Assembly (NCBI GenBank): GCA_047600485.1
Contig: JASGKS010000001.1
Coordinates: 6,912,259 to 6,976,258, forward strand
Length of the DNA stretch: 64,000 nucleotides
DNA from: Archangium sp.
GTDB taxonomy: Bacteria; Myxococcota; Myxococcia; Myxococcales; Myxococcaceae
Direction: 5' to 3'
Shown here: positions 4,679-42,924 of the stretch, in pieces
Position numbering within the stretch: the first letter of the stretch is position 1
How the letters are laid out: the number at the start of each line of letters is the position of its first letter
The notes under the pieces: generated by a model
The model's input: only the letters and a program-made list of their open reading frames with translations
The model's database searches: none
What the model was told of the DNA's origin: nothing
Program-made: the position numbers and the translations under genes

Positions 4679-4718
4679 TTGACCCTCACCCCGACCCTCT
4701 CCCTCGCGGGAGAGGGGG
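4679..4718. repeat. REP-like palindromic element copy (GACCCTCACCCCGACCCTCTCCC-tcgc-GGGAGAGGG)
   Basis: Lies in the intergenic gap between the ATPase and permease genes. Confidence 0.5.
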
Positions 4719-4727
4719 ACATGGACG

Positions 4728-6460: not shown

Positions 6461-6475
6461 GGGCGCGCAAACTAC

Positions 6476-7681: not shown

Positions 7682-7731
7682 GGTGGCGCAGCCTACCGAG
7701 CAATGTCGGCCCCGCATGCGATGGGGTGGGC

Positions 7732-8370: not shown

Positions 8371-8525
8371 TGTGAGTGGCACGGCTCTGCCGAAAACTGC
8401 ATTGAGGACGATGGGGTCGCTGTTCTCCGCGCCGTGCCAGACGATGCGCGAGCCTCTCGGCTTCGGGCGACTGGCTCCTCGCGCCGTGTGCCACTTCTGG
8501 CTCGAATTGGTGCTTCATCAGCAAA

Positions 8526-8650
8526 GCTGACAGTGGCGTGCCCCGTCGCGACCCCGAGATTCTCATCAGCAAAGCTGACAGTGGCGCAGCACCGCGCGAC
8601 CCCGAGATTCTCATCAGCAAAGCTGACAAGTGGCGCATGACGATCACGCC
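8526..8650 (+). repeat. Tandem 48-bp repeat array A (2.6 copies; unit CATCAGCAAAGCTGACAGTGGCG-N9-GCGACCCCGAGATTCT)
   Basis: Exact 48-nt period: unit starts at 8526, 8574 and 8622. Confidence 0.85.
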
Positions 8651-8755
8651 TTACCGGGATCCGATGACGCCGCCGCCGAATGAGAGCCGGCGAAAAGGGT
8701 GACGGCACGTAAGCAAGAAGAGCGTGACGTCGTGGTGTCCCAGACTGGTCGCACT

Positions 8756-8920
8756 GTCAGCTTTGCTGATGAGAATCTCTGGGTCGCGCCGAGGCGCGTC
8801 ACTGTCAGCTTTGCTGATGAGAATCTCGGGAGCGCGACCGGGCGCACGACTGTCAGCTTTGCTGATGAGAATCTCGGGGTCGCGCCGGGCAGCGCCACTG
8901 TCAGCTTTGCTGATGAAGCG
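8756..8920 (-). repeat. Tandem 48-bp repeat array B (3.4 copies, reverse complement of array A)
   Basis: Unit starts at 8756, 8804, 8852 and 8900. Conserved core of about 39 bp and a variable 9 bp. Confidence 0.85.
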
Positions 8921-9071
8921 ACCGCCAATTCGACCGCAGAACCGGCACACGGCCCAAAATCGCCAGGCGCTCGAAGCCGAGAGGCTCGTGCATCGTCTGG
9001 CACTGCGCGGAGCACTGAAACACCATCGTCCTCACTGCAGTTTTCCGCCGCGCTCATGCCACAGTCGGCGC

Positions 9072-10406
9072 GTGAGCGATCCACGAGAGACCATCGTCAC
9101 CGCCCAGAAGCAGCACGCGGAAGGCAAGACCCAAGACGCCTACCGAACCCTGCGCGGAGTCTTCTCCGGAGTCGGCGAATCACTGCGCGACGACGCGCTC
9201 TTCTTCGACGCGATCTCGTTGCTCGCCACCCTGAGCCACACCTTCGGCGCCACGAAAGTCTCCGCCGCGCTCAAGCAGTGCGTCGCCAAACGTGACGACA
9301 CGCAGATGCTCTACGACGCCGCGTACCAGCTCTACGAGGAGCAGCAGTTCGCGCCCGCCTCCGCACTGCTCTTCCGCGCGAACCGCCTCGCACCCGGCCA
9401 ACCAGGAATCATCGCCGAGCTCTCGAGCGCGCTCGAAGCCCAGCTCCGCTACGGCGAAGCAGCGCTGGTGCTCGAACAATCGAACACCGCCGAAACAGAA
9501 CCACTCTGCGCGTACCTCGCAGGCTTCAACTGGCTGATGACCGGCGACCTCGAGCGCGCGAGTTCGCACTTGAAGCGGCTCGCGACCGAGACCGACGAGC
9601 GCATGGTCTTTCAGCGCAACATGCTCGCCGGCATGGTGGCGCGAGCCGAAGCCATGCGCGCAGCCGGAATCTCCCTCGAAGGGCTCGCGCTCACCGCCTG
9701 GCAAGGAGCCATCAACGGCACCGTGCTCCTCCACGAATCACCGCACGGCTACGAGCAACCGATGCACGGCCGCTACGCCTTCGTCTCCGACAGCGCCGGG
9801 CTGCAGCGCGAAGGGCTCGAGCGATTGAAGGTGGTGTTGAGCGCGACGAACTCCGCTCCCGCGCGCATCGTGAGTGCTCCGGGCCGCGAGAGTCGACTGC
9901 TCGGCCTCGCAGCGGCGAAGACGCTCGGAGCGCCCGTCGCCGAGTGGACGCCCGGCTCCGAGAAAGGTGCCCTCGTCGTCGCGTGGACGCTGGAGAGCGT
10001 TCCCACCGACGAGCTGCTCAAGGCGTTGTCGACGCACGCTCCGGCGAACCGGCTGTTCGTGCACGCGTCGTCGTGGGTCGAACCGTTCGGCTACGCGCCC
10101 GACGTGACGACGCTGCTGCACCAGACCATCACGCACCCGTACGCGGGCGGTGCGCTGCGCGTCGACCCCGCGACGCAGAAGGTGACTCGCAGTGAACCCG
10201 ACACGCGCGCTGATGAGGTGCTGGTCGAGGAAATCGTCGCCGCGAAGATCTCGGACCCGAGCAAGACGTCGCTCGAACACGTCACCAGAGTGACTGGCGC
10301 GCTCAGGAGCGTCGACGCTTCGCATCGCGCTGGGCTGTTCGCCCAGAGCGGCCGTAGGCTTCGTCAGCGCGCTGGCGGCCCGGTGTTGAGCAATCGGTTT
10401 CTATGA
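9072..10406 (+). CDS. Hypothetical helical (TPR-like) protein
   Basis: Open frame with high GC3. Start uncertain (GTG 9072, after the palindrome). Stop overlaps the GH5 start (ATGA). Confidence 0.45.
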   Translation: MSDPRETIVTAQKQHAEGKTQDAYRTLRGVFSGVGESLRDDALFFDAISLLATLSHTFGATKVSAALKQCVAKRDDTQMLYDAAYQLYEEQQFAPASALLFRANRLAPGQPGIIAELSSALEAQLRYGEAALVLEQSNTAETEPLCAYLAGFNWLMTGDLERASSHLKRLATETDERMVFQRNMLAGMVARAEAMRAAGISLEGLALTAWQGAINGTVLLHESPHGYEQPMHGRYAFVSDSAGLQREGLERLKVVLSATNSAPARIVSAPGRESRLLGLAAAKTLGAPVAEWTPGSEKGALVVAWTLESVPTDELLKALSTHAPANRLFVHASSWVEPFGYAPDVTTLLHQTITHPYAGGALRVDPATQKVTRSEPDTRADEVLVEEIVAAKISDPSKTSLEHVTRVTGALRSVDASHRAGLFAQSGRRLRQRAGGPVLSNRFL

Positions 10407-11764
10407 ACGCGTTTGACCCTCACCCCAACCCTCTCTTGCTTCTGCTGCTGCTGGTGGCTTGCGTGCCGCCGAAGACCGAGCCACCTCCGGCGCGCACGTT
10501 CTCGGTGAGCAACGGCTTCATCCGCGACCCCGACGGACGCGCGGTGATTCTGCGCGGCGCGAACGTGAGCGGCCGCCACAAAGACCCGCCGTACTTCGAC
10601 TTCCACGAAACACCCGACTTCGAACGCATGCGCGACGAGTGGGGCATGAACTCGGTGCGCTTCCTCATCTCGTGGGCCGCGCTTGAGCCGACGCGCGATG
10701 CGTACGACGACGCGTACCTCGACGAAGTGGTGCGCAAGGTGAAGCTCGCGACCGACGCCGGGCTCCTCGTCTTCCTCGACATGCACCAGGACCTGTACGG
10801 AGTCGGTTTCCCCGGCGGAAACGGCATGCCGCGCTGGACCTGCGACGAGTCGAAGTACGCGAGCTACCGCCCGGGCACGACGTGGTTCTTCAACTACCTC
10901 TCCGCCGAAGTGACCGCGTGCTTCGACGGCTTCTGGGGCAGCCGCGACTTGCACGCGAAGTACGCCGCCGCCTGGAGCCACGTCGCGCAGCGCTTCGTCG
11001 ACGCACCACTCGTCATCGGCTTCGACCCGATGAACGAGCCGTACTGGGGCTCGTATCAACCCGACTTGCTCGAGCAGGGCCGCCTCGCGAGTCTGTATCG
11101 AGACGTCATCGCGGCGGTGCGCGTGCATCGACCCGACTGGCTCGCGTTTCTCGAGCCCGTCTCGAGCCGCAACATCGGCCTGCCCTCGAAGTTGCCGACC
11201 TTCAGCGAAGGCAACGTCGTCTACGCGCCACACTCCTACGACGGCACCGCAGAGCAGGGTATGGGCTTCGACCCGACCCGCCGCTCGGTGCTCATGGAAC
11301 AAATCGCGAAGATGCGCACCGAAGCCGACGCGCGCAACGCCGCGCTCGTGCTCGGCGAATACGGCGGCATGACCAACACGCCGGGCATCAGCGAATACAT
11401 GGACGCGGAGTACGACGCCGCGGGGCTCCAGCGCGCCGGCGCGATGTATTGGGATTACGGAAAGAACGACGGCTACGCGCTGCTCTCCGCCGATGGCACG
11501 CCGAAGGCCGACCTGCTGGCGATGGTCGCGCGCCCGTACCCCGCGCGCGTCGCGGGCGAACCCGGAGCGTGGGCAGTCGACGGCGACACGTTCACCTTCC
11601 GCTACGCGCCGAATTTCGCGCTCACCGTTCCCACCGTGATTCGCGTCCCAACGGGCACGTTCACCGCGACGTGTGACGGCTGCACGGTCGAAGCGAAGAG
11701 CGGAGCATTCGAGCTCACGCCGACGAGCGGCGTCACCGAAGTGCACTTCACGCTGACGCGCTGA
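10403..11764 (+). CDS. Glycoside hydrolase family 5 (endoglycanase/endoglycoceramidase-like) lipoprotein
   Basis: GH5 blocks NSVRFLISW, LVFLDMHQD and GFDPMNEP (catalytic NEP). Lipobox LLLVAC. Confidence 0.7.
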   Translation: MNAFDPHPNPLLLLLLLVACVPPKTEPPPARTFSVSNGFIRDPDGRAVILRGANVSGRHKDPPYFDFHETPDFERMRDEWGMNSVRFLISWAALEPTRDAYDDAYLDEVVRKVKLATDAGLLVFLDMHQDLYGVGFPGGNGMPRWTCDESKYASYRPGTTWFFNYLSAEVTACFDGFWGSRDLHAKYAAAWSHVAQRFVDAPLVIGFDPMNEPYWGSYQPDLLEQGRLASLYRDVIAAVRVHRPDWLAFLEPVSSRNIGLPSKLPTFSEGNVVYAPHSYDGTAEQGMGFDPTRRSVLMEQIAKMRTEADARNAALVLGEYGGMTNTPGISEYMDAEYDAAGLQRAGAMYWDYGKNDGYALLSADGTPKADLLAMVARPYPARVAGEPGAWAVDGDTFTFRYAPNFALTVPTVIRVPTGTFTATCDGCTVEAKSGAFELTPTSGVTEVHFTLTR

Positions 11765-11784
11765 GCCCCAGGCCTGCTCCGAGT

Positions 11785-12441
11785 TCACCAGCGGAAGCGC
11801 ACGCCGACGCTGATGCTGCAGTACGGCCACGTCATGAACGGCGGAAAGCGACGCATGAAGCCCGGCTGCGCGGTGCCCATCGTTCCGCGCACGTGCAGCA
11901 CCTTCCACGCGAACTCGAACACGCTGCCGAAGCGAAACGCATCGGGCTCGTTTGAGATGGGCATCCACTGCACGCGCGCTTCGAAGCGCAGGTCGCGATC
12001 TCCGAACAGCACGCCGAACGACGGCCCACCACCGGCGAGGAACGCGAAGATTCCGTACCACTCGCCCGACGCCGCGTAGTGCACGTTGCGCATCTCGCCA
12101 TCGACGCCGATGGTCAGAAATTTCGCAAACACCGCGCGCCCGGAAATCTGGTGCTCGAAGCCCGCGTACTCCGTGAACGGCGGCCACCACACGCCCTGCA
12201 CCCAGCCCGAGAAGATGAAGTGCTCCTCTTCGTGAACGAGGTCGATGCGACCTGATGCGCTGGGGCCCCAGCCGAGGCTGTCGCCGAGCGCGAAGCCGGC
12301 ACCGAGCCCGAGCTCGCCCCGCACTTCCGGAGACGCCATCAACACCGCACTCAACACACACGCGCTCAGCACGCGCGGGCCCTGATCAACATTCGTGCCG
12401 ACCACACCGCGCGGGGAAAGGAGAACACCCGCGACGCGCAC
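11785..12441 (-). CDS. Hypothetical outer-membrane beta-barrel-like protein
   Basis: Alternating amphipathic strands, aromatic C-terminus (...VGVRFRW). Start uncertain. Confidence 0.4.
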   Translation of the reverse strand: MRVAGVLLSPRGVVGTNVDQGPRVLSACVLSAVLMASPEVRGELGLGAGFALGDSLGWGPSASGRIDLVHEEEHFIFSGWVQGVWWPPFTEYAGFEHQISGRAVFAKFLTIGVDGEMRNVHYAASGEWYGIFAFLAGGGPSFGVLFGDRDLRFEARVQWMPISNEPDAFRFGSVFEFAWKVLHVRGTMGTAQPGFMRRFPPFMTWPYCSISVGVRFRW

Positions 12442-29011: not shown

Positions 29012-30154
29012 ATGACGATCGAGGTTCGCCCCGTCCGCGGAAAGAAAGAGCTCGAAGTGTTCCTGCACGTGCCGTGGAGCGTGGGCATGGACAAGGAACC
29101 CAACTGGGTGCCGCCGCTGCTCGACGACTACCGCAAGCAGCTGAACCCCGCGAAGAGCATCTTCCTCGAGCACGGTGAGCTGGAGATCTGGACCGCGTTC
29201 AAGGACGGCAAGCCCGTCGGCCGCATCAGCGCGCAGATCGACACCGACTACGACAAGGTGTGGCCCAACGAGCCGAAGACGTGCTTCTTCGGTTTCTTCG
29301 AGTGCGCTGACGACGTCGAGGTCGCGAAGGCGCTGTTCGCGAAGGCCGAAGCGTGGGCGAAGGAAAAAGGTCGCGTGCGCATGCGCGGTCCGTTCACGCC
29401 CGACACCAAGGGAGAGGTCGGCGTGCTGGTGAACGGCTTCGACAAGCCGTCGATGATCGGCACGATGTGGAACCGCCCGTTCATGGACAAGCTGATCCAG
29501 GACGCGGGTTACCCCAAGGTGAAGGACGTCATCGGCTGGTGGTACGACCGCTCGCAGCCGATGGACGAGACGACGAAGAAGCTCGCCGACAAGACGCGCG
29601 CGCTTCCGAACGTGAAGATTCGCAAGATGGAGCTGAGCGAGTTCAAGCGCGAAGCGAACATCATCCAGGAGATCTACAACGAGGCCTGGAAGGAGAACTG
29701 GAACTTCACTCCGTTCACCAACAAAGAGCTCGAGGTCATCGCCAACGACTACAAGATGTTCATCGACACGAACCTCACGTTCGTGGCGGAGATCGACGGC
29801 AAGCCCGCGGCGATGTGCTTCGCGATTCCCGACATCAACGAGCTGATCAAGGACTTCAACGGCGAGCTCGGGCCCATCAACATCGCCAAGCTGCTGTGGC
29901 GGCTGAAGTTCAACCGGCCGAAGAACATCCGTCTGATCATGCTCGGCGTGAAAGACGAGTTCCGCGCGTCGCGAAAGTACGGCGCGCTCGTCGCGTGCCT
30001 CTACGAAGACATCGCGACGCACGGCAAGGCGGCCGGCTACCAGTCGAGCGAGCTCTCGTGGACGCTCGAAGACAACGTCGGCATCAACCGTGGCATCGAG
30101 CGCATGGGCGGCAAGGAATACAAGCGCTGGCGCATCTACGAGAAGCCGCTCTGA
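29012..30154 (+). CDS. GNAT-fold acyltransferase-like protein (conserved hypothetical)
   Basis: 380-aa conserved protein; the fold assignment is an inference. Confidence 0.55.
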   Translation: MTIEVRPVRGKKELEVFLHVPWSVGMDKEPNWVPPLLDDYRKQLNPAKSIFLEHGELEIWTAFKDGKPVGRISAQIDTDYDKVWPNEPKTCFFGFFECADDVEVAKALFAKAEAWAKEKGRVRMRGPFTPDTKGEVGVLVNGFDKPSMIGTMWNRPFMDKLIQDAGYPKVKDVIGWWYDRSQPMDETTKKLADKTRALPNVKIRKMELSEFKREANIIQEIYNEAWKENWNFTPFTNKELEVIANDYKMFIDTNLTFVAEIDGKPAAMCFAIPDINELIKDFNGELGPINIAKLLWRLKFNRPKNIRLIMLGVKDEFRASRKYGALVACLYEDIATHGKAAGYQSSELSWTLEDNVGINRGIERMGGKEYKRWRIYEKPL

Positions 30155-30162
30155 GCAATCTC

Positions 30163-30203
30163 TCCCTCTCCTTGCGAAGCGGGGAGAGGGTCGGGGTGAG
30201 GGG
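30163..30203. repeat. REP-like palindromic element copy (CCCTCTCC-ttgcgaagc-GGGGAGAGGG-TCGGGGTGAGGGG)
   Basis: Lies 3' of the GNAT-like gene. Confidence 0.5.
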
Positions 30204-31100: not shown

Positions 31101-31138
31101 TTCCGCGCGATGAAGAGGGTCGTGGTGAGAGGCGAGCT

Positions 31139-31174
31139 CCCCCTCTCCCGCGAGGGAGAGGGTCGGGGTGAGGG
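31139..31174. repeat. REP-like palindromic element copy (CCCCCTCTCCCGCGAGGGAGAGGGTCGGGGTGAGGG) between convergent genes
   Basis: A partial second copy lies upstream at 31112..31136. Confidence 0.5.
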
Positions 31175-31185
31175 TAAACCTGCAG

Positions 31186-32259: not shown

Positions 32260-33285
32260 GTGACGCGTAGAATTCGCTCGTTCGTGACCGCGGTGCCTGA
32301 CGTGATTCTCGAGTCGCTCGCGGCACGACCCGACGACGTCGGCGTGTGGCAGGTGCTCACCGACTTTCTGCTCGAGACCGGAGCGCCGGGCGCTTCCCTC
32401 GCGATGTGCGAGCTGGAACTGATGAAGGGCATCTCCAACCCCGATCTGCTCGGTGAGCTGGCCGAGGCGCGCGCGCAACGCGAGAAGCTGCCGTTCGAGC
32501 CGTGGGGCGGGTACCCCGCATTGTGGAAGTGCGGCTTCGTGGTGCGCATGCAGCTCTCGTTGCAGAGCCGCACGTCGGAATTGCCCGCAGTCTTGAAAGC
32601 ACCAGCGATGCGCGGGCTACACCACCTCATCTTGAGTGAAGACTCGGGACGCACGGGCGCGCTGCTGTTCGGTACCGAAGAAGAGCGCCTCGCGTGGCCG
32701 ACGATTTCGCAGCGGCTGCCGACGTTGTTGGGAGCGGTCACTCCGCATCTGCGGCGGCTCTCGTTGCGTGTCGAGGAACGCTACGTGCCGCTGCAGGCCG
32801 AAGAGCAGCGCGCCGCGTTGCGTGCGTTGCTCAGCGCGTTGCCCAGGAAGCTCGACCGGCTCGACCTCGCGCTCGGCGTGCTGCACGAACTTTCCATCGA
32901 GCCGCTGCTGGAGCTGATCAGCCAGGTGCCATCGGTCTGCCTCGATGGAACGCGACTCCCGCTGAGCCCGGGCTTCGCTGATCAGCTGCAGAGCGTGAGC
33001 ACCGGACACGTGTATCTGGCCGGCACCGGGCTCTCCCCGCGCAACGTCACCGCCAAAGACTGGCTCGCGCCCGACGTGAAGACCTGGCTCGAGTTGGAGA
33101 GCACGGGCGCGCTGGTGCCGCTCACGGCGGTCGCGACTCCGGACGGTTTCGATTCACCGGCGTGGCCGCGGCTGCGCGCGTATCTGCAGAAGGACCTGCT
33201 CGGCTTCTCGGTGCAGGGCGAGCTGCTCGAGCCCGGAGCGGTGCTCAACCTCGACGACGTGCTCGCCGTGTTCAGGCGGCGCTGA
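32260..33285 (+). CDS. TIGR02996-like repeat-companion/LRR protein (paralog)
   Basis: WQVLTDFLLETGAPGASLAMCEL motif with an L-rich body. GTG start at 32260; the upstream part of the track ORF is off-frame junk. Confidence 0.5.
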   Translation: MTRRIRSFVTAVPDVILESLAARPDDVGVWQVLTDFLLETGAPGASLAMCELELMKGISNPDLLGELAEARAQREKLPFEPWGGYPALWKCGFVVRMQLSLQSRTSELPAVLKAPAMRGLHHLILSEDSGRTGALLFGTEEERLAWPTISQRLPTLLGAVTPHLRRLSLRVEERYVPLQAEEQRAALRALLSALPRKLDRLDLALGVLHELSIEPLLELISQVPSVCLDGTRLPLSPGFADQLQSVSTGHVYLAGTGLSPRNVTAKDWLAPDVKTWLELESTGALVPLTAVATPDGFDSPAWPRLRAYLQKDLLGFSVQGELLEPGAVLNLDDVLAVFRRR

Positions 33286-33286
33286 G

Positions 33287-33709
33287 TCAGCGCGTGCCGT
33301 CCCACTCACCGCCGTCGTCGTCCTGATCTCCGTGACCCCACGTGCCCTCGAAGGAGTGCCCGTCGGCGCGAAACACGAAACGCATGCGACCGTAGCGGTC
33401 TCCACCTTCGTCCCACCGCCCGCGCAATTCGTTGCCGGTGATGGTGCCTTCGAACGAGCCTTCGATGGTGCCTTCCACTCCGGGCTCGGGCCGCGCGGTC
33501 GTGGTGTACGTCGCCGTCACGCGCTCGCCCTGCTGCACCATCGTCACCACCGCGACGTAGTCACCGCCGCCGATCCACTTCGTGTTCCACGGGCCGCTCA
33601 CGTCGGGCACTGGCGTCGACGAAACGGTCTCGGAAATTCCGTACACGTAGCGCACACAACCCGACATCAAGGCGAGCGCTGCGCAGCTAGCAATAAGGAG
33701 TGATCGCAC
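33287..33709 (-). CDS. Small lipoprotein (hypothetical)
   Basis: MRSLLIASCAALALMSGC lipobox. Confidence 0.5.
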   Translation of the reverse strand: MRSLLIASCAALALMSGCVRYVYGISETVSSTPVPDVSGPWNTKWIGGGDYVAVVTMVQQGERVTATYTTTARPEPGVEGTIEGSFEGTITGNELRGRWDEGGDRYGRMRFVFRADGHSFEGTWGHGDQDDDGGEWDGTR

Positions 33710-33740: not shown

Positions 33741-33789
33741 CTTCACTTCCCGAGCACGTCCATCGCGGCGTTCACCACGCCCGAGTACT
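33741..33789. repeat. Left copy of 49-bp direct repeat (duplicated 3' end of the hydrolase gene), islet boundary
   Basis: CTTCACTTCCCGAGCACGTCCATCGCGGCGTTCACCACGCCCGAGTACT, identical to 35628..35676. Confidence 0.85.
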
Positions 33790-33830
33790 CCTGCACGGTA
33801 GTCGGCGTGTGTGCGTTGCCGCAGAACCAT

Positions 33831-34232
33831 TCAGGGAGACGCGCGTCGCCTTGGTCTCTTGGTTCCGGACAACGCCGTTTTCAGCACTGCGCGTCGCCGC
33901 TCGACTACTTCTGTCGGCGGTAAAGCTGGCTCCATTCGAGGGAATATCAATCCCACCGCTCCTCCGACCGGCCGGAGTACGGCGTTCATCGTGTCGATGG
34001 TCGGGTTCGAATCGGGTTTGTCTTCAACGACCTGCAGTGCCGATGTTGAGATCTTCACGAGGCGTGCAAAGTCCGAGCGATTCTTCCGGAGCACCACAGC
34101 GCGAAGAAACCGCACCGCATCACCGAACCGCCACTCACCCTGGTTTACAAGAGCGGCCACATCTTCCAAGAGATCCTTGCGTTCCATCGGGCCCATCGCT
34201 GCGAGTTCATCGCGCTTCAAAGCAGACCCCAC
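33831..34232 (-). CDS. XRE-family HTH protein (putative antitoxin, HipB-like)
   Basis: HTH GEWRFGDAVRFLRAVVLRKNRSDFARLVKISTSALQVVE. Overlaps the HipA-like stop by 16 nt. Confidence 0.6.
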   Translation of the reverse strand: MGSALKRDELAAMGPMERKDLLEDVAALVNQGEWRFGDAVRFLRAVVLRKNRSDFARLVKISTSALQVVEDKPDSNPTIDTMNAVLRPVGGAVGLIFPRMEPALPPTEVVERRRAVLKTALSGTKRPRRRASP

Positions 34233-35509
34233 TCCTTCAGCCGCTTGTCCGTGCGCTGAAGTCCCAAGCCTGGGAACTCAAGAGTCTCTTTCGGCAAGCC
34301 GAGTTTCATCAGCAGCACTGGCAGATCTGTGAGCTTCTCGCCGAGTTCCCGCAGTCCGTCACGCACTGTCGCCTCATGTTCTCCAAAGGTCGAGATGACG
34401 CCCTGCCAGTTAATGTCGCCGCCCCTCTCGAGAGGCCCCCACGTAGTGGACCGGGCGATACCGTCGAGATCCATCTTCATCGGCGCGAAGTCGTACACCG
34501 GGGACAGACAAACAGCGTCCTCGCTCTTTAGGAGTGACGTGTTCCGACCGTGGTTATCGGAGTTACCGAACACGAGGTTGAGGACGTCTCGCCGGACATA
34601 CTCAAGAAGAAGTGCCGGCCATGAGGATGCCGGGACTACCTTTCGCAACTCCGCGAGCACATCTTGGTGTCGCAGTCGCGAGCCAGGACCAGCAGAGAGG
34701 AGCGAATACATCGACTCCACTCCCAGGCGCACTTCTTGACCGTCACGACGGCGTACGTCGAAGCGGGGCAACCACAGGCTCGGGCCGGCCTGTCCCTCGC
34801 GGAGTTCCATACCCTCGGTAGAGATGGTGTCGATGCCCAACTCTGCGAGAGCCCGATAGAAGACGTACTCCGAGCGGAGGATGAGCTGATCGCGTTCGTG
34901 CCTCGTTCGAGCGAACTTCACGAGTAAGTGACTCGCCGAATCTCCTGGTTCGTCCTGCCAGACATCGATCCAGACTCGGCCATCGGGATCTTTCCGCAGC
35001 AGCAGTTTGGGGGAATCACCGCCAGCGCCGGTTGCTCCGCCAACCTGCGCGCCATGCTCAGCGGCCCATTCGATGAAGTCGTGTTCTCGCTCGACGACAG
35101 CGTCCGCGGGAAAGCGGCGTGGCGGGCTATTTGACCTTGGTGGCACCGACTCTGCGATGCGCAGGTTACCCACTGGCGCCACGGTGCCTTGGCTCAGGAG
35201 ACGTAGATCGCTGCTGGGTGCGTCCGCAAGCCCAAGCCGATTGAGCCACCAGCGCCGCGCATTGGCCATTGGTCGGACGTCATCAAGAAACGAAGGCCAT
35301 TTCGGAGAGAGCGTCGGACCGAAGGTCAGTGGAAGGCGCAGGCTCGCTGCTGTGTCGAAGCGGTGCGATCCCAGCCGAGCCTCCAAGTAGGCGAACTCGT
35401 ACTCGAAGTAGCACCGTCCAACGTCGCCAGTGGCGTCTGGAAACTCAAGGATCGCAGCCTTCTCCCAGCGGCCGTCCAAGAGCATCTCCAGCGTCAGAGA
35501 AGCTGTCAT
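34217..35509 (-). CDS. HipA-like Ser/Thr kinase toxin
   Basis: HipA C-terminal catalytic motif LVFGNSDNHGRNTSLL with HipA N-domain-like sequence. ATG 35509 is preceded by an AT-rich promoter. Confidence 0.7.
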   Translation of the reverse strand: MTASLTLEMLLDGRWEKAAILEFPDATGDVGRCYFEYEFAYLEARLGSHRFDTAASLRLPLTFGPTLSPKWPSFLDDVRPMANARRWWLNRLGLADAPSSDLRLLSQGTVAPVGNLRIAESVPPRSNSPPRRFPADAVVEREHDFIEWAAEHGAQVGGATGAGGDSPKLLLRKDPDGRVWIDVWQDEPGDSASHLLVKFARTRHERDQLILRSEYVFYRALAELGIDTISTEGMELREGQAGPSLWLPRFDVRRRDGQEVRLGVESMYSLLSAGPGSRLRHQDVLAELRKVVPASSWPALLLEYVRRDVLNLVFGNSDNHGRNTSLLKSEDAVCLSPVYDFAPMKMDLDGIARSTTWGPLERGGDINWQGVISTFGEHEATVRDGLRELGEKLTDLPVLLMKLGLPKETLEFPGLGLQRTDKRLKEWGLL

Positions 35510-35627
35510 AGTATTTTATAATATCTTATCCAGCCTGGTTCCGACGCCGAAAATATACTTTAAAGTACTATGGGCGCTCGCGGACCCGCACAATTACTAC
35601 TAAAGAAGTAATCCGCCTCAACGCGAG
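35510..35627 (-). promoter_or_regulatory. AT-rich promoter region of the islet operon
   Basis: Minus-strand sense TTTAAAGTATATTTTCGG...GATAAGATATTATAAAATACT directly upstream of the HipA-like ATG. Confidence 0.4.
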
Positions 35628-35676
35628 CTTCACTTCCCGAGCACGTCCATCGCGGCGTTCACCACGCCCGAGTACT
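35628..35676. repeat. Right copy of 49-bp direct repeat (functional 3' end of the hydrolase gene)
   Basis: Identical to 33741..33789; encodes ...QYSGVVNAAMDVLGK*. Confidence 0.85.
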
Positions 35677-36745
35677 GGACCTGCCAGAGGTGCGCGAGCG
35701 GCGTGTTGTGCGGCCCTTCCATCAGCACCGTCTTCGCGCCCGGCATGGCGAGCTGCGCGGTGGGCATGTAGCCGTCGCCGTCTTCGAACACGCCCTTCTT
35801 CGGGCCGAGCGTCGGAGTGCCGGTGGTGCCGATGATGGTCACTCCACCGCTGACCTGATTCTTCTGACGGTCCCAGTTGGTGTTGAGGTCGTTGATCATC
35901 TTGCTGCCCACCGCGAGCTCGCGCGCGGCGTCGTCGACGTTCTTGATGGGGTCGCCCACCACGTTGCCGATGTTGCCCAGGTACGTGCCGTGTGACGCGG
36001 GGCCGATCATTACGGTGCGATCGATCTTCGGGCCCTTCGACGGGTCGCGCTGATCCAGATACAGCCGGAAGTCGGTGCCGCCCGCGGAGTGCGTGATGAC
36101 GTCGACGTCACCCGTGCCCGTCGCCTTCGAGATCGCCGCCATCGCGTTCGCAATCTGCGGAGCCTTCAGCGTCGGCGACGCCCACGGGTCTTTGTATTCG
36201 ACCTCGAAAATCTTCGCGCCCTTCACCTCGGCCGCCGTCGCCTCGCGTCCCTGCGAATCGTTGAGGCGGAACTTGTTCTGCTCCGCGACGTAGACGACGA
36301 CCGGACCGTTGGCCTTGTTGCTCGCGAGCTGATCACCCAGCCCGTCGAAGCTCTTCGCCGGCATTGTCAGCCCGGGAATCATCACCACCGGCCGCTTCAA
36401 CACCGGCGGTGCGTTCTTCGGCCCGTACGCCACGCGCTGCGCACCCGTCAGCGCTTCCGGCGCGCCACCCGGCTTCAGCTTGTTGAACACGCGATCCGAC
36501 ATCCAATCCTTGCTGGCATTGAAGAGGTCGATCTTCGGACCCGGCCCCTGCTTGAAGGCGTCGGGCGTCACCGCGTTCTTCAGGTTCTCGAACCCGTTCT
36601 TCAAGTTGTTCAACGGAGCCCACCCGCGCGCCTTCGCCGCAGGAGCAGGAGCAGCAGCAGGAGCCGCGGTCGCCGCAGCCTTCGGAGCCGAAGTCGGAGC
36701 GCTGCGAACCGCCGGACGTGAAGCATCGATGCGCGAGGTAGCCAT
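35630..36745 (-). CDS. Alpha/beta-hydrolase (lipase-like) protein
   Basis: VITHSAGG nucleophile-elbow-like motif with an Ala/Pro-rich N-terminus. Start taken at MATSRID. Confidence 0.55.
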   Translation of the reverse strand: MATSRIDASRPAVRSAPTSAPKAAATAAPAAAPAPAAKARGWAPLNNLKNGFENLKNAVTPDAFKQGPGPKIDLFNASKDWMSDRVFNKLKPGGAPEALTGAQRVAYGPKNAPPVLKRPVVMIPGLTMPAKSFDGLGDQLASNKANGPVVVYVAEQNKFRLNDSQGREATAAEVKGAKIFEVEYKDPWASPTLKAPQIANAMAAISKATGTGDVDVITHSAGGTDFRLYLDQRDPSKGPKIDRTVMIGPASHGTYLGNIGNVVGDPIKNVDDAARELAVGSKMINDLNTNWDRQKNQVSGGVTIIGTTGTPTLGPKKGVFEDGDGYMPTAQLAMPGAKTVLMEGPHNTPLAHLWQVQYSGVVNAAMDVLGK

Positions 36746-36870
36746 GTGCGCATTGTCGTCAGAGGTGCGCTCCGGTTCATCGGCAGAGCGCGACAATCTG
36801 ATGTGCAAACCGCGACATCTCACGCATCGTGGCTCTGCACTCCGACTCACTCTCGAGGGTTTGGCACTCC

Positions 36871-39800
36871 ATGCGTTTCCAGTTCGCCGTCTTCCCGCTC
36901 GCGCTCGCGTTCGCGGTGTCGTTGTCCGCCTGTTCTCCCGCGTCGCAGAAGTGTTCGGCGTCCACCTGTCCCAACGGTTGCTGTGACGCTTCAGGCTCGT
37001 GTCAGGCCGGCTCGTCGGGCCTCGCGTGCGGCGCGGCCGGAGCGATGTGCACGCAATGCCAGCTCGGAGAAATCTGTACCTTCGGACAATGCAGCTCCAT
37101 CACCGGCAACGGCGGTGGCGGCGGCTCGAGCGGCGGCGGTGGCGGAACGGGTGGCGGCTCGACTGGCGGCGGAAGTGCGGGCGGCGGTAGCGCGATGGGC
37201 GGCGGCAGCGCGATGGGCGGCGGCAGCGCGATGGGCGGTGGCAGCGCGATGGGCGGTGGCGGCGGCTCGACTGGTGGCGGCGGCGGCTCGACCGGCGGCG
37301 GCGGCGGAATGCTCGACCCGTGCGCCGGCACGCTGACTCTGTGCGGCACGCGCTGTCTCGATCTCTCCGCTGACCCCGAGAACTGCGGCACCTGCGGCCG
37401 CGTGTGTGGCCAGGGCGAGGTGTGCAACCGCGGCTCGTGCAACGTGCTCCCCAACGACTGCACCATGCAGAGCAACGGCTGCGGCGCGGGCTACTACTGC
37501 GACCCCGTCAGCAAGCACTGCATGACCGGCTGCCGACTCACCACCGACTGCCCGATGGGAGCGACCTGCAGCATGGGCACCTGCTCGTGCGGCCCGGGCC
37601 AACACGCGTGCGGCCAGGAATGCGTGGCTGACGACGCCGCGACCTCGTGCGGCTCCCGCTGCGGAGCGTGCCCGCAACCTGCGCACTCCACCGCGACCTG
37701 CGTCGCCGCCTCGTGCGACTTCACGTGCGCCAGCGGCTACGTGCTCAACAGCGCCATGTGCGTCGACGTCGATGAGTGCGCCACCAACAACGGCGGCTGC
37801 AGCGCGAACGCGGCGTGCACGAACACCGACGGCTCCCGCACCTGCGCGTGCAACGCGGGCTTCACCGGCGACGGAGTGACCTGCACCGACATCAACGAGT
37901 GCGCGAGCAACAACGGCGGCTGCGACGTGAACGCGATGTGCACCAACACCCCGGGCTCGCGCACCTGCACCTGCGCCACCGGCTACACCGGCAACGGCAC
38001 CTCGTGCGTCGACATCGACGAGTGCGCAGCGGGCAACGGTGGCTGCGCGACGAACGCGACCTGCACCAACACTCCGGGCGCGCGCACCTGCGCGTGCAAC
38101 GCGGGCTTCACCGGCAACGGCCTCACGTGCACCGACGTGAACGAGTGCCTCACCAACAACGGCGGCTGCGCGGCGACCACCGCGGGCGGCGTGTGCACCA
38201 ACACTCCGGGCACGCGCACCTGCTCGTGCGCGACGGGCTTCACCGGCGACGGCTTCACCTGCACCGACGTGAACGAGTGCCTCACCAACAACGGCGGCTG
38301 CGCGGCGACCACCGCGGGCGGCGTGTGCACCAACACCGCCGGCTCGCGCACCTGCTCGTGCAACACCGGCTTCACGGGCAACGGCTTCACCTGCACCGAC
38401 ATCAACGAGTGCCTCACCAGCAACGGCGGCTGCGCGGCGACCACCGCGGGCGGCGTGTGCACCAACACCTCGGGCTCGCGCACCTGCTCGTGCAACACCG
38501 GCTTCACCGGCGACGGCTTCACCTGCACCGACGTGAACGAGTGCCTCACCAACAACGGCGGCTGCGCGGCGACGACTGCTGGTGGCGTGTGCACCAACAC
38601 CGTCGGCTCCCGCACTTGCTCATGCAACACCGGCTTCACGGGCAACGGCTTCACCTGCACCGACGTCAACGAGTGCCTCACCAACAACGGCGGCTGCGCG
38701 ACGACGGCGAACGGTGGCGTGTGCACCAACACCGTCGGCTCACGCACCTGCTCGTGCAACACCGGCTTCACCGGCGACGGCTTCACCTGCAGCGACGTCA
38801 ACGAGTGCCTCACCAACAACGGCGGCTGCGCGGCGACCACCAGCGGCGGCGTGTGCACCAACACGCCGGGCTCGCGAAACTGCACCTGCGCCTCGGGCTG
38901 GACGGGGAATGGACTGACCTGCACCGACGTCGACGAGTGCCTCACCAACAACGGCGGCTGCTCGGTGAACGCGACGTGCACCAACACGCCGGGCTCGCGG
39001 AGCTGCGCGTGCAACTCCGGCTACGCGGGCAACGGCATCACCTGCACGCCGAACGGAGACACCTGCGCGGCGCCGGTGACGTTGACGCTCAACACGCCGT
39101 TCTCCGGCTCGACGGTGGGCGCGGTGAACGACTACGCGACGGCGCTCTCGCAGCTGTGCGATGGCGCGACGCTGCCCGGCTCCGACACGGTGCACGTCTT
39201 CACGCCCGCGACGACCGGCTCATTCCGTCTCGGCATCACCGGCTTCGCGGGCATTCGCGTGTGGCTCGCCCCCACCTGTGGAGCGGCAGCGAGCTGCGCG
39301 GGTCTGGCGCCGGAATACAGCTCGAGCACCGCGCTCAACTTCCGCGGCACCGCGGGCGTGCCGGTGTTCATCGTCGTCGATTCAACGAGCAGCCCGGGCG
39401 CGTACACCTTGAACGTCACGTCCATCGCGACGGTGGCGAACGAGACGTGCGCCAACGCGGCACCGCTCACGCTCGGCACGCCGGTGACGGCTTCGCTCAG
39501 CAACGCCATCAACGACGTGACGCTCCTCGCGTCGTGCGCGAGCCCGCCGTACACGCAGCCTGAGCTCGTCTACAGCTTCACGCCGTCGAGCACCGGCAAC
39601 TACGTGCTGCGCGAGACGACCTCGGCCGACGTGGTGATGTGGGTCGGCACCGGCTGCACCGGCACCTGCGTGCTCGAGACCGATGAGCCGGAGTCGATGC
39701 AGGTCGCGCTCACCGCCGGCACGCAATACTTCTTCTTCGTCGAGCCCTACACGACGGCGACCTCGTTCACGATTTCGCTCGATCAAATCGTCACGCCGCC

Positions 39801-41286
39801 CAACGACACCTGCGCCGGAGCCGTCACCCTCCCCGTCTCGACCACCGTGAGCGCCACCACGCTCGGCGCGGCGAACGACTACGCGGGTCCGCTCTCGTCG
39901 GCGTGCTCGTCGATTGCGGTGCCGGGCAATGACGTCGTCTACACGTTCACGCCCGCGACGACCGGCTCGTACTTCGTGACGGTCACCACCAGCAACGGAG
40001 CGACCGACACCTGGGTCAGCACCACGTGCGGCGATTCGAATTCCTGCGTCGCGGTCGAGCCGGCCATCGGTTCCAACTTCGTGTTCCGCGGCACCGCGGG
40101 CGTTCCGGTGTTCCTCACGGTCGATGGAACGTCGGCTACGAGCCCGGCTGACTTCGGCATCTCGGTCGAGCCCATCACGCCGCCGGCGAACGACACGTGC
40201 GCGACTGCGCAGACCATCTCGGTCGGCATGCCCACCAGCGGCACCACCATCGGAGCGGCCGACGACCTCAACCCCGTCACCGCGTGCGGACCGACGCGGC
40301 GCGCGGCCGACGTGGTGTACAGCTTCACGCCTCCGACGACCGGCCCGTACGTGTTCCGCGAGACGACCTCGGCCGACGTGGTGATGTGGGCCTCGAGCGC
40401 GTGCGATGGAACGTGCAGCGGCTACACCGATGAGCCCGAAGAGCTCATCTTCAACGGCACCGCGGGCGTGCCGGTGTTGCTCTTCCTCGAGCCGTACTCG
40501 CAGCGCGCGGCGTTCACCGTCGAAGTGCTCGCGGGCACCGTGCCCACCAACGACACCTGCGCGGCGACGCAGGCGCTCACGCTCGGCACTCCGGCCAACG
40601 GCACCACGTCGTTCGCCAACAACGACTACTCCGGCACGCTCAACACCACGTGCGGCGGGCTGGCGGTGAACGGCCGCGACGTCGTGTTCTCGTTCACGCC
40701 GGCGTCGTCGGGCAACTTCAGCATCGTCACCACCACCACCGGTTGGTCGCCGACGGTCTGGGCCTCGACGGCGTGCGGCGCGACGGCGAGCTGCGTGTCG
40801 GCGCAGTCGAGCACGTTGACGCAGGTGGTGCGTGGCACGGCGGCGACTCCGTTCTTCGTCACCGTCGATGGCACCGACATGACGAACTCCGGCAGCTACA
40901 CGCTCACCGTGAACTCGGTCGTGGCGCCGGTGAACGACACGTGCGCGACGGCCACTCCGTTGACGAACGGCGTCTCGGTGAACTCCACCACCGTCGGCGC
41001 GGTGAACGACGTGCACCCGCTGCCTTCGTGCACCACCAGCACGCGGCGCAACGGAGAGGTGATGTTCAGCTTCGTGCCTCCCACCAGCGGCACGTGGTTC
41101 TTCCACGAGACGAGCGGCTCCGACGTGTTGATGTGGGTTGGCACGGTGTGCGACGGCTCGTGCCTCGCGTACGTCGATGACCCGGAAGACATCGGGCTCA
41201 CGCTGACCGCGGGCGTCACGTACTACCTCTTCGTCGAGCCGTACTCGACGCCGGGTCCCATCACCGTCATCGCGAGCCCGAATTGA
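36871..41286 (+). CDS. Giant lipoprotein: 8-Cys module, poly-Gly linker, 13 cbEGF-like repeats, 8 alternating PPC-like beta-domains
   Basis: Lipobox LALAFAVSLSAC. Repeats of the form D(V/I)(N/D)EC.(T/S)NNGGC...C.NT.GSR.C.C..G(F/Y)TG.G..C. Eight repeats of about 90 aa with NDTCA...DVVY.FTP.TTG.Y. Confidence 0.7.
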   Translation: MRFQFAVFPLALAFAVSLSACSPASQKCSASTCPNGCCDASGSCQAGSSGLACGAAGAMCTQCQLGEICTFGQCSSITGNGGGGGSSGGGGGTGGGSTGGGSAGGGSAMGGGSAMGGGSAMGGGSAMGGGGGSTGGGGGSTGGGGGMLDPCAGTLTLCGTRCLDLSADPENCGTCGRVCGQGEVCNRGSCNVLPNDCTMQSNGCGAGYYCDPVSKHCMTGCRLTTDCPMGATCSMGTCSCGPGQHACGQECVADDAATSCGSRCGACPQPAHSTATCVAASCDFTCASGYVLNSAMCVDVDECATNNGGCSANAACTNTDGSRTCACNAGFTGDGVTCTDINECASNNGGCDVNAMCTNTPGSRTCTCATGYTGNGTSCVDIDECAAGNGGCATNATCTNTPGARTCACNAGFTGNGLTCTDVNECLTNNGGCAATTAGGVCTNTPGTRTCSCATGFTGDGFTCTDVNECLTNNGGCAATTAGGVCTNTAGSRTCSCNTGFTGNGFTCTDINECLTSNGGCAATTAGGVCTNTSGSRTCSCNTGFTGDGFTCTDVNECLTNNGGCAATTAGGVCTNTVGSRTCSCNTGFTGNGFTCTDVNECLTNNGGCATTANGGVCTNTVGSRTCSCNTGFTGDGFTCSDVNECLTNNGGCAATTSGGVCTNTPGSRNCTCASGWTGNGLTCTDVDECLTNNGGCSVNATCTNTPGSRSCACNSGYAGNGITCTPNGDTCAAPVTLTLNTPFSGSTVGAVNDYATALSQLCDGATLPGSDTVHVFTPATTGSFRLGITGFAGIRVWLAPTCGAAASCAGLAPEYSSSTALNFRGTAGVPVFIVVDSTSSPGAYTLNVTSIATVANETCANAAPLTLGTPVTASLSNAINDVTLLASCASPPYTQPELVYSFTPSSTGNYVLRETTSADVVMWVGTGCTGTCVLETDEPESMQVALTAGTQYFFFVEPYTTATSFTISLDQIVTPPNDTCAGAVTLPVSTTVSATTLGAANDYAGPLSSACSSIAVPGNDVVYTFTPATTGSYFVTVTTSNGATDTWVSTTCGDSNSCVAVEPAIGSNFVFRGTAGVPVFLTVDGTSATSPADFGISVEPITPPANDTCATAQTISVGMPTSGTTIGAADDLNPVTACGPTRRAADVVYSFTPPTTGPYVFRETTSADVVMWASSACDGTCSGYTDEPEELIFNGTAGVPVLLFLEPYSQRAAFTVEVLAGTVPTNDTCAATQALTLGTPANGTTSFANNDYSGTLNTTCGGLAVNGRDVVFSFTPASSGNFSIVTTTTGWSPTVWASTACGATASCVSAQSSTLTQVVRGTAATPFFVTVDGTDMTNSGSYTLTVNSVVAPVNDTCATATPLTNGVSVNSTTVGAVNDVHPLPSCTTSTRRNGEVMFSFVPPTSGTWFFHETSGSDVLMWVGTVCDGSCLAYVDDPEDIGLTLTAGVTYYLFVEPYSTPGPITVIASPN
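37183..37254 (+). repeat. In-frame 18-bp tandem repeat x4 (GGCGGYAGCGCGATGGGC, encoding GGSAMG) inside the giant gene
   Basis: Four consecutive near-identical 18-mers. Confidence 0.8.
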
Positions 41287-42455
41287 GCCACAGAGTCTTC
41301 GGTCTTTGCGTGGCGGCGTTGATCAGCACCGGCTGTCCCGGTGTGGTGTCGGGCGACGATGCGGGCAGCATGGTGGACTCGGGAGTCACCGCGATGGACG
41401 GCGGTGACGTCGACGCGGGCACCGGCACCGACGCGGGCCTCACGTTGCCGCAGTGGCGCGTCGGCCTTCCGCTGCTGGAGTGGACCGAAATTCCCAACAC
41501 CAGCGGCGCCGGCGGAGCAGCCATCGACGCCTGGGGCGCGCTCGCCGAGAACAAAGCGACCGGCGAGCTCTACATCGCGGCGTCGGGCGGCCACAGCGAC
41601 AGCGCCGACAACCGCGTGGTGAGCATGAACCTGATGGCCGACGCTCCGACGTGGACGTTGCGACACGCGGCGAGCGCGAACCCGATGACCGACGTTCTCT
41701 ATTACGCCGACGGGTTGCCCACCGCGCGTCACCTGTACGCGCATCTGCACTACCTGCCGTCGATAAACGCGGTGCTGCTCGGTGGTTGTCGCTACGGCTA
41801 CGGCGGTGGCACGCCGACCGGCCCGGGTATGGACGCGTTCGACCTGACGACGAACCAATGGCTGCCGCGCCAGACGCTCGCCGACATCACGCCGTTCAAC
41901 GGCTACGTGGTGGAAATCGACGGCGCGGGTTCAGCGTGGTCCACCTCGGGCAATCGCTTCGTGCCGTCGACCAACACGTGGAGCACGCCAGGCACGGGCC
42001 CGGGCCTCGGCCGTTTTCCGCATGCCACCGCGCCCGCGCGCAATCTCATCTTCAGCCTGCAGTACGGAGACGGTCAGGGCTACGACCTGAACCTCGGCGT
42101 CGTCGCGCGCAAGCTCGACACCACCACGGGAAACTCGGTGGAGATTTCGTTCACGCCGAGCACTGCGCTGACGGAGTTCATCGCCGCGCAGCCGACGTAT
42201 GCGGGCATGGACTTCGACGCGGCGAACGACCGCTTCCTTTTCTACCACGGTGGTGAAACCGGGAAGGTCTACGCCATCACGCCCAACGCGACGAACACGT
42301 GGAGCATCAGCGTGCTGACGACGACTGGCCTGCCGGGGGTCACGCCGACCTCAGGCTCAGGCATCAACAAACGCTTCCGCTATCTGCCCACACTGGACGG
42401 CTTCGTGTTGATGCCGCGTGGTGGGAGCAACTTGTACTTCCTGCGCACACGGTGA
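41283..42455 (+). CDS. Lipoprotein, probable beta-propeller (hypothetical)
   Basis: ATGA overlap with the giant gene's stop. Lipobox ALISTGC. DAGTGTDAG linker. Confidence 0.55.
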   Translation: MSHRVFGLCVAALISTGCPGVVSGDDAGSMVDSGVTAMDGGDVDAGTGTDAGLTLPQWRVGLPLLEWTEIPNTSGAGGAAIDAWGALAENKATGELYIAASGGHSDSADNRVVSMNLMADAPTWTLRHAASANPMTDVLYYADGLPTARHLYAHLHYLPSINAVLLGGCRYGYGGGTPTGPGMDAFDLTTNQWLPRQTLADITPFNGYVVEIDGAGSAWSTSGNRFVPSTNTWSTPGTGPGLGRFPHATAPARNLIFSLQYGDGQGYDLNLGVVARKLDTTTGNSVEISFTPSTALTEFIAAQPTYAGMDFDAANDRFLFYHGGETGKVYAITPNATNTWSISVLTTTGLPGVTPTSGSGINKRFRYLPTLDGFVLMPRGGSNLYFLRTR

Positions 42456-42477
42456 CTTCACGTAGCATTCCGGTGCG

Positions 42478-42924
42478 ATGTCGAACCTGCGCGCAGCGGT
42501 GGTTGGTGAGACGGTGGTGCTCGTCACGAACGCGACGAACCCCGAGCAGGAAGAGTGGGACGCGTACCTCGTGAAGCTCGGCGAGCATCTGAACGCGCGC
42601 GCCGGAAAACCGGGGCGACTCATCGTCTTCGCGGGTGGCGGCACGCCGAGCTCATCGATGCGGCTCGGGCTGCGCAACGTGGTGAAGGAGCGGCCGCTGC
42701 AGACCGCGGTGATTTCTGATTCCGCCGTGGTGCGCGGCATCATCGGCGTGTTCGCGCTGTTCGTGAAAGGCACGAAGCCCTACGGCGTGCGCGATTGGAA
42801 GGCGGCGCTCGAGTACGTCGGCTTTCCGTACGACAAGCTCAACGACCTGGTGAACGAAGTGAAGGCGATGGACTCGCAGATTGGCGGCTGCGTCGCGGTG
42901 GCTGATCTCGTGAAGACGAAATGA
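42478..42924 (+). CDS. Hypothetical protein (148 aa)
   Basis: Open frame with codon bias consistent with coding. Confidence 0.45.
   Translation: MSNLRAAVVGETVVLVTNATNPEQEEWDAYLVKLGEHLNARAGKPGRLIVFAGGGTPSSSMRLGLRNVVKERPLQTAVISDSAVVRGIIGVFALFVKGTKPYGVRDWKAALEYVGFPYDKLNDLVNEVKAMDSQIGGCVAVADLVKTK

Follow-up and report, generated by a model that had tools for sequence, protein, structure and literature searches.

The 64,000-nucleotide (nt) stretch of an Archangium sp. contig analyzed here (the window, whose positions give all coordinates below) contains a hipAB islet: a 1,838-bp unit of foreign DNA that was inserted at the 3' end of an alpha/beta hydrolase gene with duplication of 49 bp of its target. 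The unit encodes a HipA-family kinase followed by a helix-turn-helix (HTH) partner and, judging from its sequence, is most likely a complete, minimal, self-regulated putative toxin-antitoxin operon of the reversed hipAB/hipEB type. We favor recombinase-independent insertion with long target duplication as its mode of entry, with a probability of roughly 0.55. The islet, we think, combines a described reversed-order class of HipA modules with a described class of long-target-duplication insertions, and an integrase attachment (att) site is the less likely source of its repeats.

The target locus has the following parts:

33741-33789: left copy of the 49-bp repeat, an orphan that occupies the native place seen at the empty sites L052 and L053 described below, with 31 bp between it and the lipoprotein gene downstream
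33790-35627, minus strand: inserted DNA, 1,838 bp, G+C content 0.597, absent from related hydrolase loci
35628-35676: right copy of the repeat, in use as the 3' end of the hydrolase gene and comprising its last 15 codons, the TGA stop codon (35630-35632) and 2 nt beyond
35630-36850, minus strand: target gene, encoding a DUF915-type alpha/beta hydrolase
33287-33709, minus strand: gene for a small lipoprotein-like protein of 140 amino acids (aa), the native downstream neighbor; G+C content at third codon positions (GC3) 0.79
32293-33285, plus strand: convergent conserved gene that closes a variable gap, 56% identical to its L052 counterpart, with no Pfam family

The limits of the islet are set by the 49-mer CTTCACTTCCCGAGCACGTCCATCGCGGCGTTCACCACGCCCGAGTACT, which is present exactly twice in the window with 0 of 49 positions mismatched, and which had 0 matches in shuffled sequence. 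Setting aside EGF-like tandem repeats at 37-39 kb, this pair is the sole long exact direct repeat in the 64 kb. Its outer limits are sharp: the 30-90 nt aligned upstream of the copies were borderline over shuffles (p 0.05-0.19) and the downstream flanks were unrelated (p >0.15). The original prediction had described this exact repeat, taking the right copy as the end of the hydrolase gene, stop codon included, and the left copy as an orphan. All three points held, the right copy being read as the end of the 35630-36850 open reading frame (ORF) and the left copy being part of no hydrolase ORF. The true start of the hydrolase is probably near 36745, because orthologues align from there.

The DNA between the two copies differs in composition from its host. 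Its G+C content is the lowest of any same-size stretch of the window, for which the mean is 0.668 (standard deviation 0.018). The windowed analysis that had been proposed as a check therefore bore out the low G+C content, although the background of about 70% given with it was slightly overstated. GC3 is 0.68 in hipA and 0.63 in the partner gene, compared with 0.79-0.92 in the neighboring genes, and the islet is the only place in the window where a host-like GC3 frame is missing. A second low-GC patch at 29-30 kb (approximately 0.60) was considered as a sister islet and rejected. It corresponds to a native gene at 29012-30154 with a GNAT acetyltransferase match and a GC3 of 0.92, whose low G+C content is due to its Lys-rich composition and not to foreign origin.

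Related genomes preserve the site without the insert. Hydrolase orthologues were scanned in one genome per species, which gave 27 loci at 66-87% identity, all in Archangium-like metagenome-assembled genomes (MAGs). None of these loci carried the kinase or the partner, none had the lipoprotein gene within 10 kb, and at the DNA level only the hydrolase end matched. Two further loci, L052 and L053, were found via homologues of the lipoprotein. Both have a single hydrolase tail; 35 bp after the hydrolase gene (85% aa identity) comes a lipoprotein homologue (63-65%), and the convergent gene (56%) lies farther along. AraC and SIR2 genes lie on the other side of the hydrolase, so that the locus is orthologous to that of the window. 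The orphan copy of the window, the AG after its stop codon and the 31-bp spacer align with this native junction, and the orphan is therefore the old gene end in its old place. The hydrolase gene directly followed by the lipoprotein gene is the empty site that had been foreseen. Of the 28 related hydrolase loci in all, none has the islet genes. An identical arrangement with host-like G+C content and no repeat, named beforehand as the mark of an ancestral tandem duplication, was not observed in these 28 loci, all comparison genomes being from other species.

These comparisons bear directly on the view that nothing was inserted, and that the structure is either an old tandem duplication that diverged or an assembly artefact in which two organisms were joined at a shared 49-mer. 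The source is a MAG (proteins P0001 and P0199 are named 'MAG: ... [Archangium sp.]') and the repeat copies are perfectly identical, both of which would suit such a view. However, the interior of the insert is foreign in composition and has no similarity to the flanks, and empty sites exist. An assembler path would also need both junctions, islet to repeat and repeat to native flank, in real molecules; the contig is 9.4 Mb long, and an analogous structure is found in an independent assembly (L014, below). We consider this explanation very improbable. For the empty site and the excised circle, the junctions would read as follows:

Empty-site form, hypothetical pre-insertion sequence: …CAGGTCC, then the 49-mer, then TCAGGCTGAGG…
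Circle form, hypothetical excised-circle sequence: …GTGCAGG, then the 49-mer, then CTCGCGTTGAGG…

The same gene end has received a second insert elsewhere. The DNA after the hydrolase stop codon differs in almost every species, with the convergent gene 0-2.7 kb away; in L012 the hydrolase stop directly abuts that of the convergent gene with no gap. Among 29 loci, only the window and L014 have a second copy of their own hydrolase tail. In L014, approximately 1 kb of lower-GC DNA (10969-12069; 0.605 vs 0.658) lies between the copies of a 110-bp duplication, which are 98% identical. This duplication extends from -73 to +35 relative to the stop codon and covers the end of the convergent gene too, whereas that of the window extends from -46 to +2. 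The L014 cargo is a ptuA gene truncated at its 5' end, with no ptuB; 256 C-terminal residues of the Septu ATPase PtuA are left (PADLOC, E 2e-83, matching profile positions 189-444 of 448). The hydrolase gene end was hit twice independently by different defence-type cargo, with unequal duplications and with the flanking genes preserved.

Other differences were seen around the hydrolase. In L052, AraC is directly upstream of the hydrolase, so that side of the gene is variable too; in the window, the region between the hydrolase and the AraC/SIR2 pair (36829-42924) holds a gene for a secreted protein of 1,485 aa that is rich in Cys and Gly and has EGF-like tandem repeats of 132 bp, and two ORFs with no Pfam match. 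L052 also has an AAA_15/AAA_21 ATPase gene (1-848) a few kb upstream of the hydrolase and an extra 329-aa ORF (6426-7415) between the lipoprotein gene and the convergent gene, to which the window has no counterpart.

Within the insert, the following features make up the operon:

35510-35627, minus strand: operon control region, 118 bp, AT-rich, G+C content 0.44
35598-35610: palindromic box TACTAAAGAAGTA, inside ATTACTTCTTTAGTAGTAAT, in the control region
35556-35567: palindromic box TACTTTAAAGTA, in the control region
35400-35410: third match to TACT-N-AGTA, within the 5' coding region of hipA
34217-35509, minus strand: hipA, encoding a HipA-family Ser/Thr kinase of 430 aa, a putative toxin, with a HipA_C domain and conserved kinase motifs
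33831-34220, minus strand: gene for a diverged XRE/Cro-type HTH partner of 129 aa, a putative HipB-like antitoxin and autorepressor

Very little DNA is left over. Between the outermost box and the right repeat there are 17 bp, and between the partner stop codon and the left repeat 41 bp, so that the insert amounts to one bare operon. The original prediction had the insert begin with an AT-rich promoter. The control region is indeed AT-rich and carries palindromic boxes, while a simple scan of 33.2-36.0 kb found no sigma-70 consensus promoter; a scan of the same interval for intrinsic terminators found nothing. The pattern TACT-N(2-5)-AGTA occurs three times in the 64-kb window, always in the islet, where 0.01 would be expected. 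The match at 35400-35410 coincides with conserved YFEY codons and may for this reason be a coding by-product and not an operator. In 119 kb of other loci carrying the module, eight of eight matches to the pattern lie within -200 to +150 of the hipA start. These modules have a common upstream architecture, with TACT-N-AGTA boxes at about -14, -55 and -97, and little module DNA, about 8-20 bp, lies beyond the outermost box. Judging by HipB (PMC8262856), the boxes are likely operators of the HTH partner.

Profile searches upheld the assignment of the first gene to the HipA family on the strength of its GNSDNHGRN motif. The kinase matches Pfam HipA_C (PF07804) with an E value of 1.3e-25 and 90.7 bits (cut-off 30.5). 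Couple_hipA (PF13657), the N-terminal subdomain 1, gave E 0.0028 and 18.6 bits, under its cut-off of 22.5, and the matches of homologues to it are also weak or faint. The Gly-rich loop GGATGAGGDSPK, the catalytic loop GNSDNHGRN and the motif PVYDFAP are invariant in an alignment of 30 homologues; the D-x-H-x-x-N loop, the Mg-binding Asp and the Gly-rich ATP loop with its Lys are all intact. The catalytic loop aligns with the HipT loop GNNDMHLRN…PVYDF. A single-sequence search of the PDB with the kinase gave no match, and with its family profile HipT and HipA structures were matched over the catalytic loop only, at E values of about 2e-3. The best NCBIfam match, YjjJ, is far under its cut-off. 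By these searches, the kinase family is remote from the characterized HipA and HipT kinases.

The HTH partner is a more diverged protein. Translation probably begins at a TTG (34220) that shares the sequence TTGA with the hipA stop codon and is preceded by AAGGAG at a distance of 10 nt; with the GTG at 34232 as start codon, the product would be 133 aa long. The window protein itself has no Pfam or NCBIfam match. However, 24 of 27 partner orthologues (57-73% identical) match HTH_3, with a best E value of 1.3e-5. In an hhalign comparison, the partner family aligned with the partners of distant kinase relatives at a probability of 97% (E 9e-11, 82 columns), and those distant partners score 33.8 and 35.1 bits on HTH_3 (cut-off 23). 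PDB profile searches brought up HigA3, HipB and HTH_3 proteins at non-significant E values. The AlphaFold2 model has a mean pLDDT of 68.9 and Foldseek against the PDB returned only noise (E >3), so the HTH call rests on sequence profiles. In this low-confidence model, the protein has an extra N-terminal helix and a C-terminal tail relative to canonical HipB. The XRE-type partner named in the original prediction was therefore right, its domain being a diverged one.

The module belongs to a family that is well represented in the host's relatives. The identical kinase protein (P0001) is recorded for an NCBI 'Archangium sp.' MAG, while the next relative is only 78-79% identical. The kinase family is common in Myxococcaceae, Myxococcus, Corallococcus, Pyxidicoccus and Cystobacter among them, where the kinase-partner pair occurs in at least eight unrelated gene contexts. 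The partner directly follows the kinase in every locus fetched, mostly with a 4-nt overlap; the partner gene as called in the L033 group is shorter and begins 20 nt downstream. DNA similarity between the window module and the others is confined to the two coding regions. The nearest kinase relatives (76-79%) are on contigs of about 70% G+C and have a GC3 of 0.81-0.87, so the window copy must have passed time in an unsampled lower-GC replicon. One kinase gene copy (76% identical; L046 6001-7400, on a 220-kb contig) is split into short out-of-frame ORFs with an internal deletion and, from its sequence, looks like a decaying module. On three IMG/VR provirus contigs (L057-L059, G+C content approximately 0.37), kinase relatives at 40-44% identity have an overlapping downstream gene for a canonical XRE-HTH partner. 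Kinase-first order is therefore shared by widely separated lineages and is found on predicted proviruses as well.

The gene order, a control region followed by the kinase and then by the overlapping HTH partner downstream, is the reverse of the canonical HTH-first order. Kinase-first modules were described by Gerdes, Baerentsen & Brodersen (2021, mBio; PMC8262856) as hipAB subclades and hipEB. They make up 20 of 1,239 modules, none of them experimentally tested, and no myxobacterial names were found in the text of the supplement. The islet resembles these rare modules in having, in one operon, a full-length HipA-homologous kinase and then a small HTH protein that is presumed to be antitoxin and autoregulator. 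The likeness is one of gene order, with clades VI, VII and IX as the candidates, whereas the kinase profile meets solved HipA and HipT only at the catalytic loop. With E. coli K-12 hipBA the islet has in common a HipA_C kinase with its Gly-rich loop, Asp-x-His-x-x-Asn loop and Mg-binding Asp, an XRE-HTH partner, and palindromes in the promoter region that serve, or here would serve, as operators (PMC8262856). It differs in its reversed order, in the extra N-terminal helix and C-terminal tail of its partner, in its candidate operator half-sites (TACT/AGTA), and in that its kinase has no significant single-sequence match to solved HipA. By analogy with the family, the kinase would phosphorylate an essential translation factor and so arrest growth, characterized HipA and HipT kinases having aminoacyl-tRNA synthetases as their targets. 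The HTH partner would bind and neutralize the kinase and would repress the operon via the TACT-N-AGTA palindromes.

How did this operon enter the hydrolase gene? Several classes of mobile DNA were considered. No tRNA and no Rfam family were found in scans of the window, and of the 82 inverted repeats found in 31-39 kb, the 25 longest include no inverted pair linking both insert ends. The readings as integron cassette or transposon were dropped, as no pair among these 25 links the insert ends and the 49-bp repeat is not attC-like by eye (no formal attC test was made). A DDE transposon or a miniature inverted-repeat transposable element would require a duplication of less than about 15 bp, compared with the 49 bp here, and the listed repeats included no terminal inverted pair. 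Phage carriage was likewise set aside, as the 34-nt core of the repeat was absent from viral contigs and only the 40-44% kinase relatives in low-GC proviruses were found.

Site-specific integration deserves closer attention. A tyrosine-recombinase element with the hydrolase tail in its attP would leave attL and attR at the two ends of the islet, its integrase having been deleted later, or the islet could be an integrase-less cassette moved in trans. The latter would be CIME-like, CIME-type elements being integrase-less att-flanked derivatives of genomic islands. As in integrase islands, direct repeats stand at both islet ends and one of them completes the 3' end of the target gene, restoring it with its stop codon as attP-borne 3' ends do, and repeat-mediated excision is possible in principle. 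Identity blocks of 45 to approximately 100 bp are also normal for elements at tRNA genes or gene 3' ends (PMC2853133). The truncation of the L014 cargo is what a decaying island would show.

Against this, no integrase or transposase domain was found in the islet or among the genes scanned within approximately 12 kb on either side, as the original prediction had noted for the islet. A decayed integrase island is disfavored because almost nothing but functional operon parts lies between the repeats: with 17 and 41 bp to spare, hardly any arm-type DNA is left, and a deletion would need to have ended almost precisely at each att site. The endpoints of the duplication differ between the window and L014. 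The presumed core has no excess synonymous conservation, with synonymous codon sharing at 0.77 in the last 15 hydrolase codons and 0.79 overall, and extra constraint as an att or regulatory sign was therefore discarded. Among the annotated neighbors of other module copies no recombinase-family product was found. A metagenome scan for the kinase gave 11 loci, none with a recognizable integrase-type context. Flanking repeats are absent around other module copies with enough flank, except in L029, and were rejected as a general property of the module. Insertion at a gene 3' end with a 49-bp target duplication, as originally predicted, is thus supported by the empty sites in L052 and L053; the further claim of an integrase att site is not, there being no recombinase among the genes scanned within approximately 12 kb and the endpoints differing between the two events. 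We regard site-specific integration as unlikely, though it is the strongest of the competitors.

Recombinase-independent insertion with long target duplication suits the structure better than the remains of an integrase island do. The 1,838-bp foreign unit went into the final 47 nt of the DUF915 hydrolase gene, and 49 bp of target now stand on both sides. Because the target was duplicated, the hydrolase keeps an intact end while the old end stays before the lipoprotein gene. The foreign DNA may have been captured at a broken or staggered target, or may have been joined by one-sided homology and an illegitimate join at the other end. The length of the duplication would then be set by the positions of the two joins and not by a fixed core, and the hydrolase 3' end would be a recurrent landing site for defence or addiction cargo. 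The repeat copies are identical although the orphan is unconstrained, and GC3 is far below that of the host; both features suggest that the operon arrived recently. As inferred from the family, the addictive property of the module, a stable toxin, would counter-select its loss by recombination between the 49-bp repeats.

Such insertions have been described for restriction-modification systems. Furuta, Abe & Kobayashi (2010, Nucleic Acids Research 38:2428; PMC2853133) sorted repeat-flanked units into site-specific recombination, 'insertion with long target duplication' and chance. The units, including those of Nobusato et al. (2000) as cited there, are small restriction-modification units of atypical G+C content with no mobility genes and with repeats of more than 30 bp. 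Those repeats vary from 45-47 bp to approximately 420 bp, are single-copy in the empty-site strain and in some cases overlap gene 3' ends. The islet is alike in its atypical G+C content, in its repeat of more than 30 bp (49 of 49 positions identical), which is in single copy at the between-species empty site, in its size of less than 20 kb (1,838 bp, two genes) with no mobility genes or tRNA, and in its overlap with a gene 3' end, the repeat lengths being variable here too (49 and 110 bp). It is not a strict member of the class, as its cargo is a kinase/HTH pair (a Septu fragment in L014) and not restriction and modification genes. Its host, moreover, is a myxobacterium, and its empty site comes from related species rather than from a conspecific strain. 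The authors suspected DNA breakage by the restriction enzyme as the driver, the mechanism of the class being unexplained (PMC2853133). A kinase toxin cannot cut DNA, so this driver cannot apply to the hipAB case.

Variable repeat lengths and sharp repeat ends with no conserved core are also predicted by displacement of the gene's 3' end. Here a donor hydrolase with an adjacent hipAB would have recombined homologously with the recipient gene, an illegitimate join would have fallen 47 nt before the recipient stop codon, and the old tail would have been orphaned downstream. Homology-facilitated illegitimate recombination, or C-terminal displacement, is the proposed source of orphaned 3' regions at Rhs and type VI secretion system (T6SS) effector loci (PMC5361080 and references therein). 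As at those loci, an orphan 3' gene end lies downstream of newly arrived toxin/immunity-type cargo; there, however, a variable toxin tip is replaced, whereas here the gene end was duplicated unchanged and the cargo is an independent operon. The one other module with flanking repeats fits displacement in a further way. In L029 (7918-13244), a whole host gene, for a 202-aa scramblase, is present in two copies (81.5% identical) that bracket a 4.7-kb segment with the hipA-partner pair, a Fic gene and an ORF of 262 aa, as would result from a diverged donor copy. A similar event, older and on a larger scale, may have produced L029. On the other hand, displacement requires an earlier, unexplained placement of hipAB beside a donor hydrolase, and no such neighbor was found in 28 loci. 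The present hydrolase 3' end also looks native, being 95% identical to that of L001 and close to that of L052, so that the donor would have had to be of nearly the same species. We consider displacement improbable, and it overlaps with insertion with long target duplication rather than excluding it.

Several points weigh against recombinase-independent insertion. The term 'long target duplication' describes an outcome more than a process, because its mechanism is unsolved. The genome is 9.4 Mb long, of which our inspection for recombinases covered 64 kb, and a recombinase could lie elsewhere in it. The empty sites come from other species, the nearest with 85-87% aa identity in the hydrolase, which makes the comparison one between species. 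Both duplications, that of the window and the independent one of L014, cover the same 49 bp and could equally point to a site-specific crossover there. Just inside the islet (33790-33850), DNA in frame with the hydrolase gives …GNAHTPTTVQE before the repeat, faintly like the hydrolase …GPHNTPLAHLWQVQ (p approximately 0.05). This resemblance could be a relic of a donor-borne hydrolase tail and would fit an attP-like or Campbell-type site. We did not use a diverged hydrolase tail inside the islet as evidence, the similarity being borderline (p 0.05-0.07) with nothing downstream. As to the operon, the window's own partner misses the HTH_3 model and its predicted structure is too poor for any fold match, and the toxicity of the kinase, its neutralization and the operator binding are putative, drawn by analogy.

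Two other repeat families in the window lie apart from the islet. A REP-like 38-nt element, ACCCTCACCCCGACCCTCTCCCTCGCGGGAGAGGGGGA, occurs at 4682-4719 and, inverted, at 31138-31175, 26 kb apart, with a partial copy at 30182. At 8512-8900, between the ORFs 7657-8370 and 8724-10406, there is a dense array of approximately 36-nt units with a 48-bp period in both orientations. An example is CGCGACCCCGAGATTCTCATCAGCAAAGCTGACAGT, found in direct orientation at 8547 and 8595 and inverted at 8849.

Toxin-antitoxin and defence genes are scattered in bacterial chromosomes, often with no mobile element nearby, and their entry is poorly understood. The locus described here appears to be a bare operon caught soon after arrival, with both junctions intact, a known empty site and an independent second insertion at the same gene end. 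We would tentatively suggest that minimal addiction and defence operons in general, and not restriction-modification units only, can enter by long-target-duplication insertion independently of a recombinase, and that the hydrolase 3' end is a recurrent landing pad in Archangium-like myxobacteria. If so, the two events, hipAB with 49 bp and the Septu fragment with 110 bp, would be natural substrates for working out the mechanism, and nuclease activity of the cargo would be ruled out as the driver of insertion, a kinase toxin being unable to cut DNA. The islet does not overturn current views and is a clean case study rather than a surprise. It would extend a pattern known for restriction-modification systems to a kinase-type toxin-antitoxin module and to the Myxococcota, and it indicates a widespread myxobacterial family of reversed-order HipA modules with a recognizable candidate operator motif.

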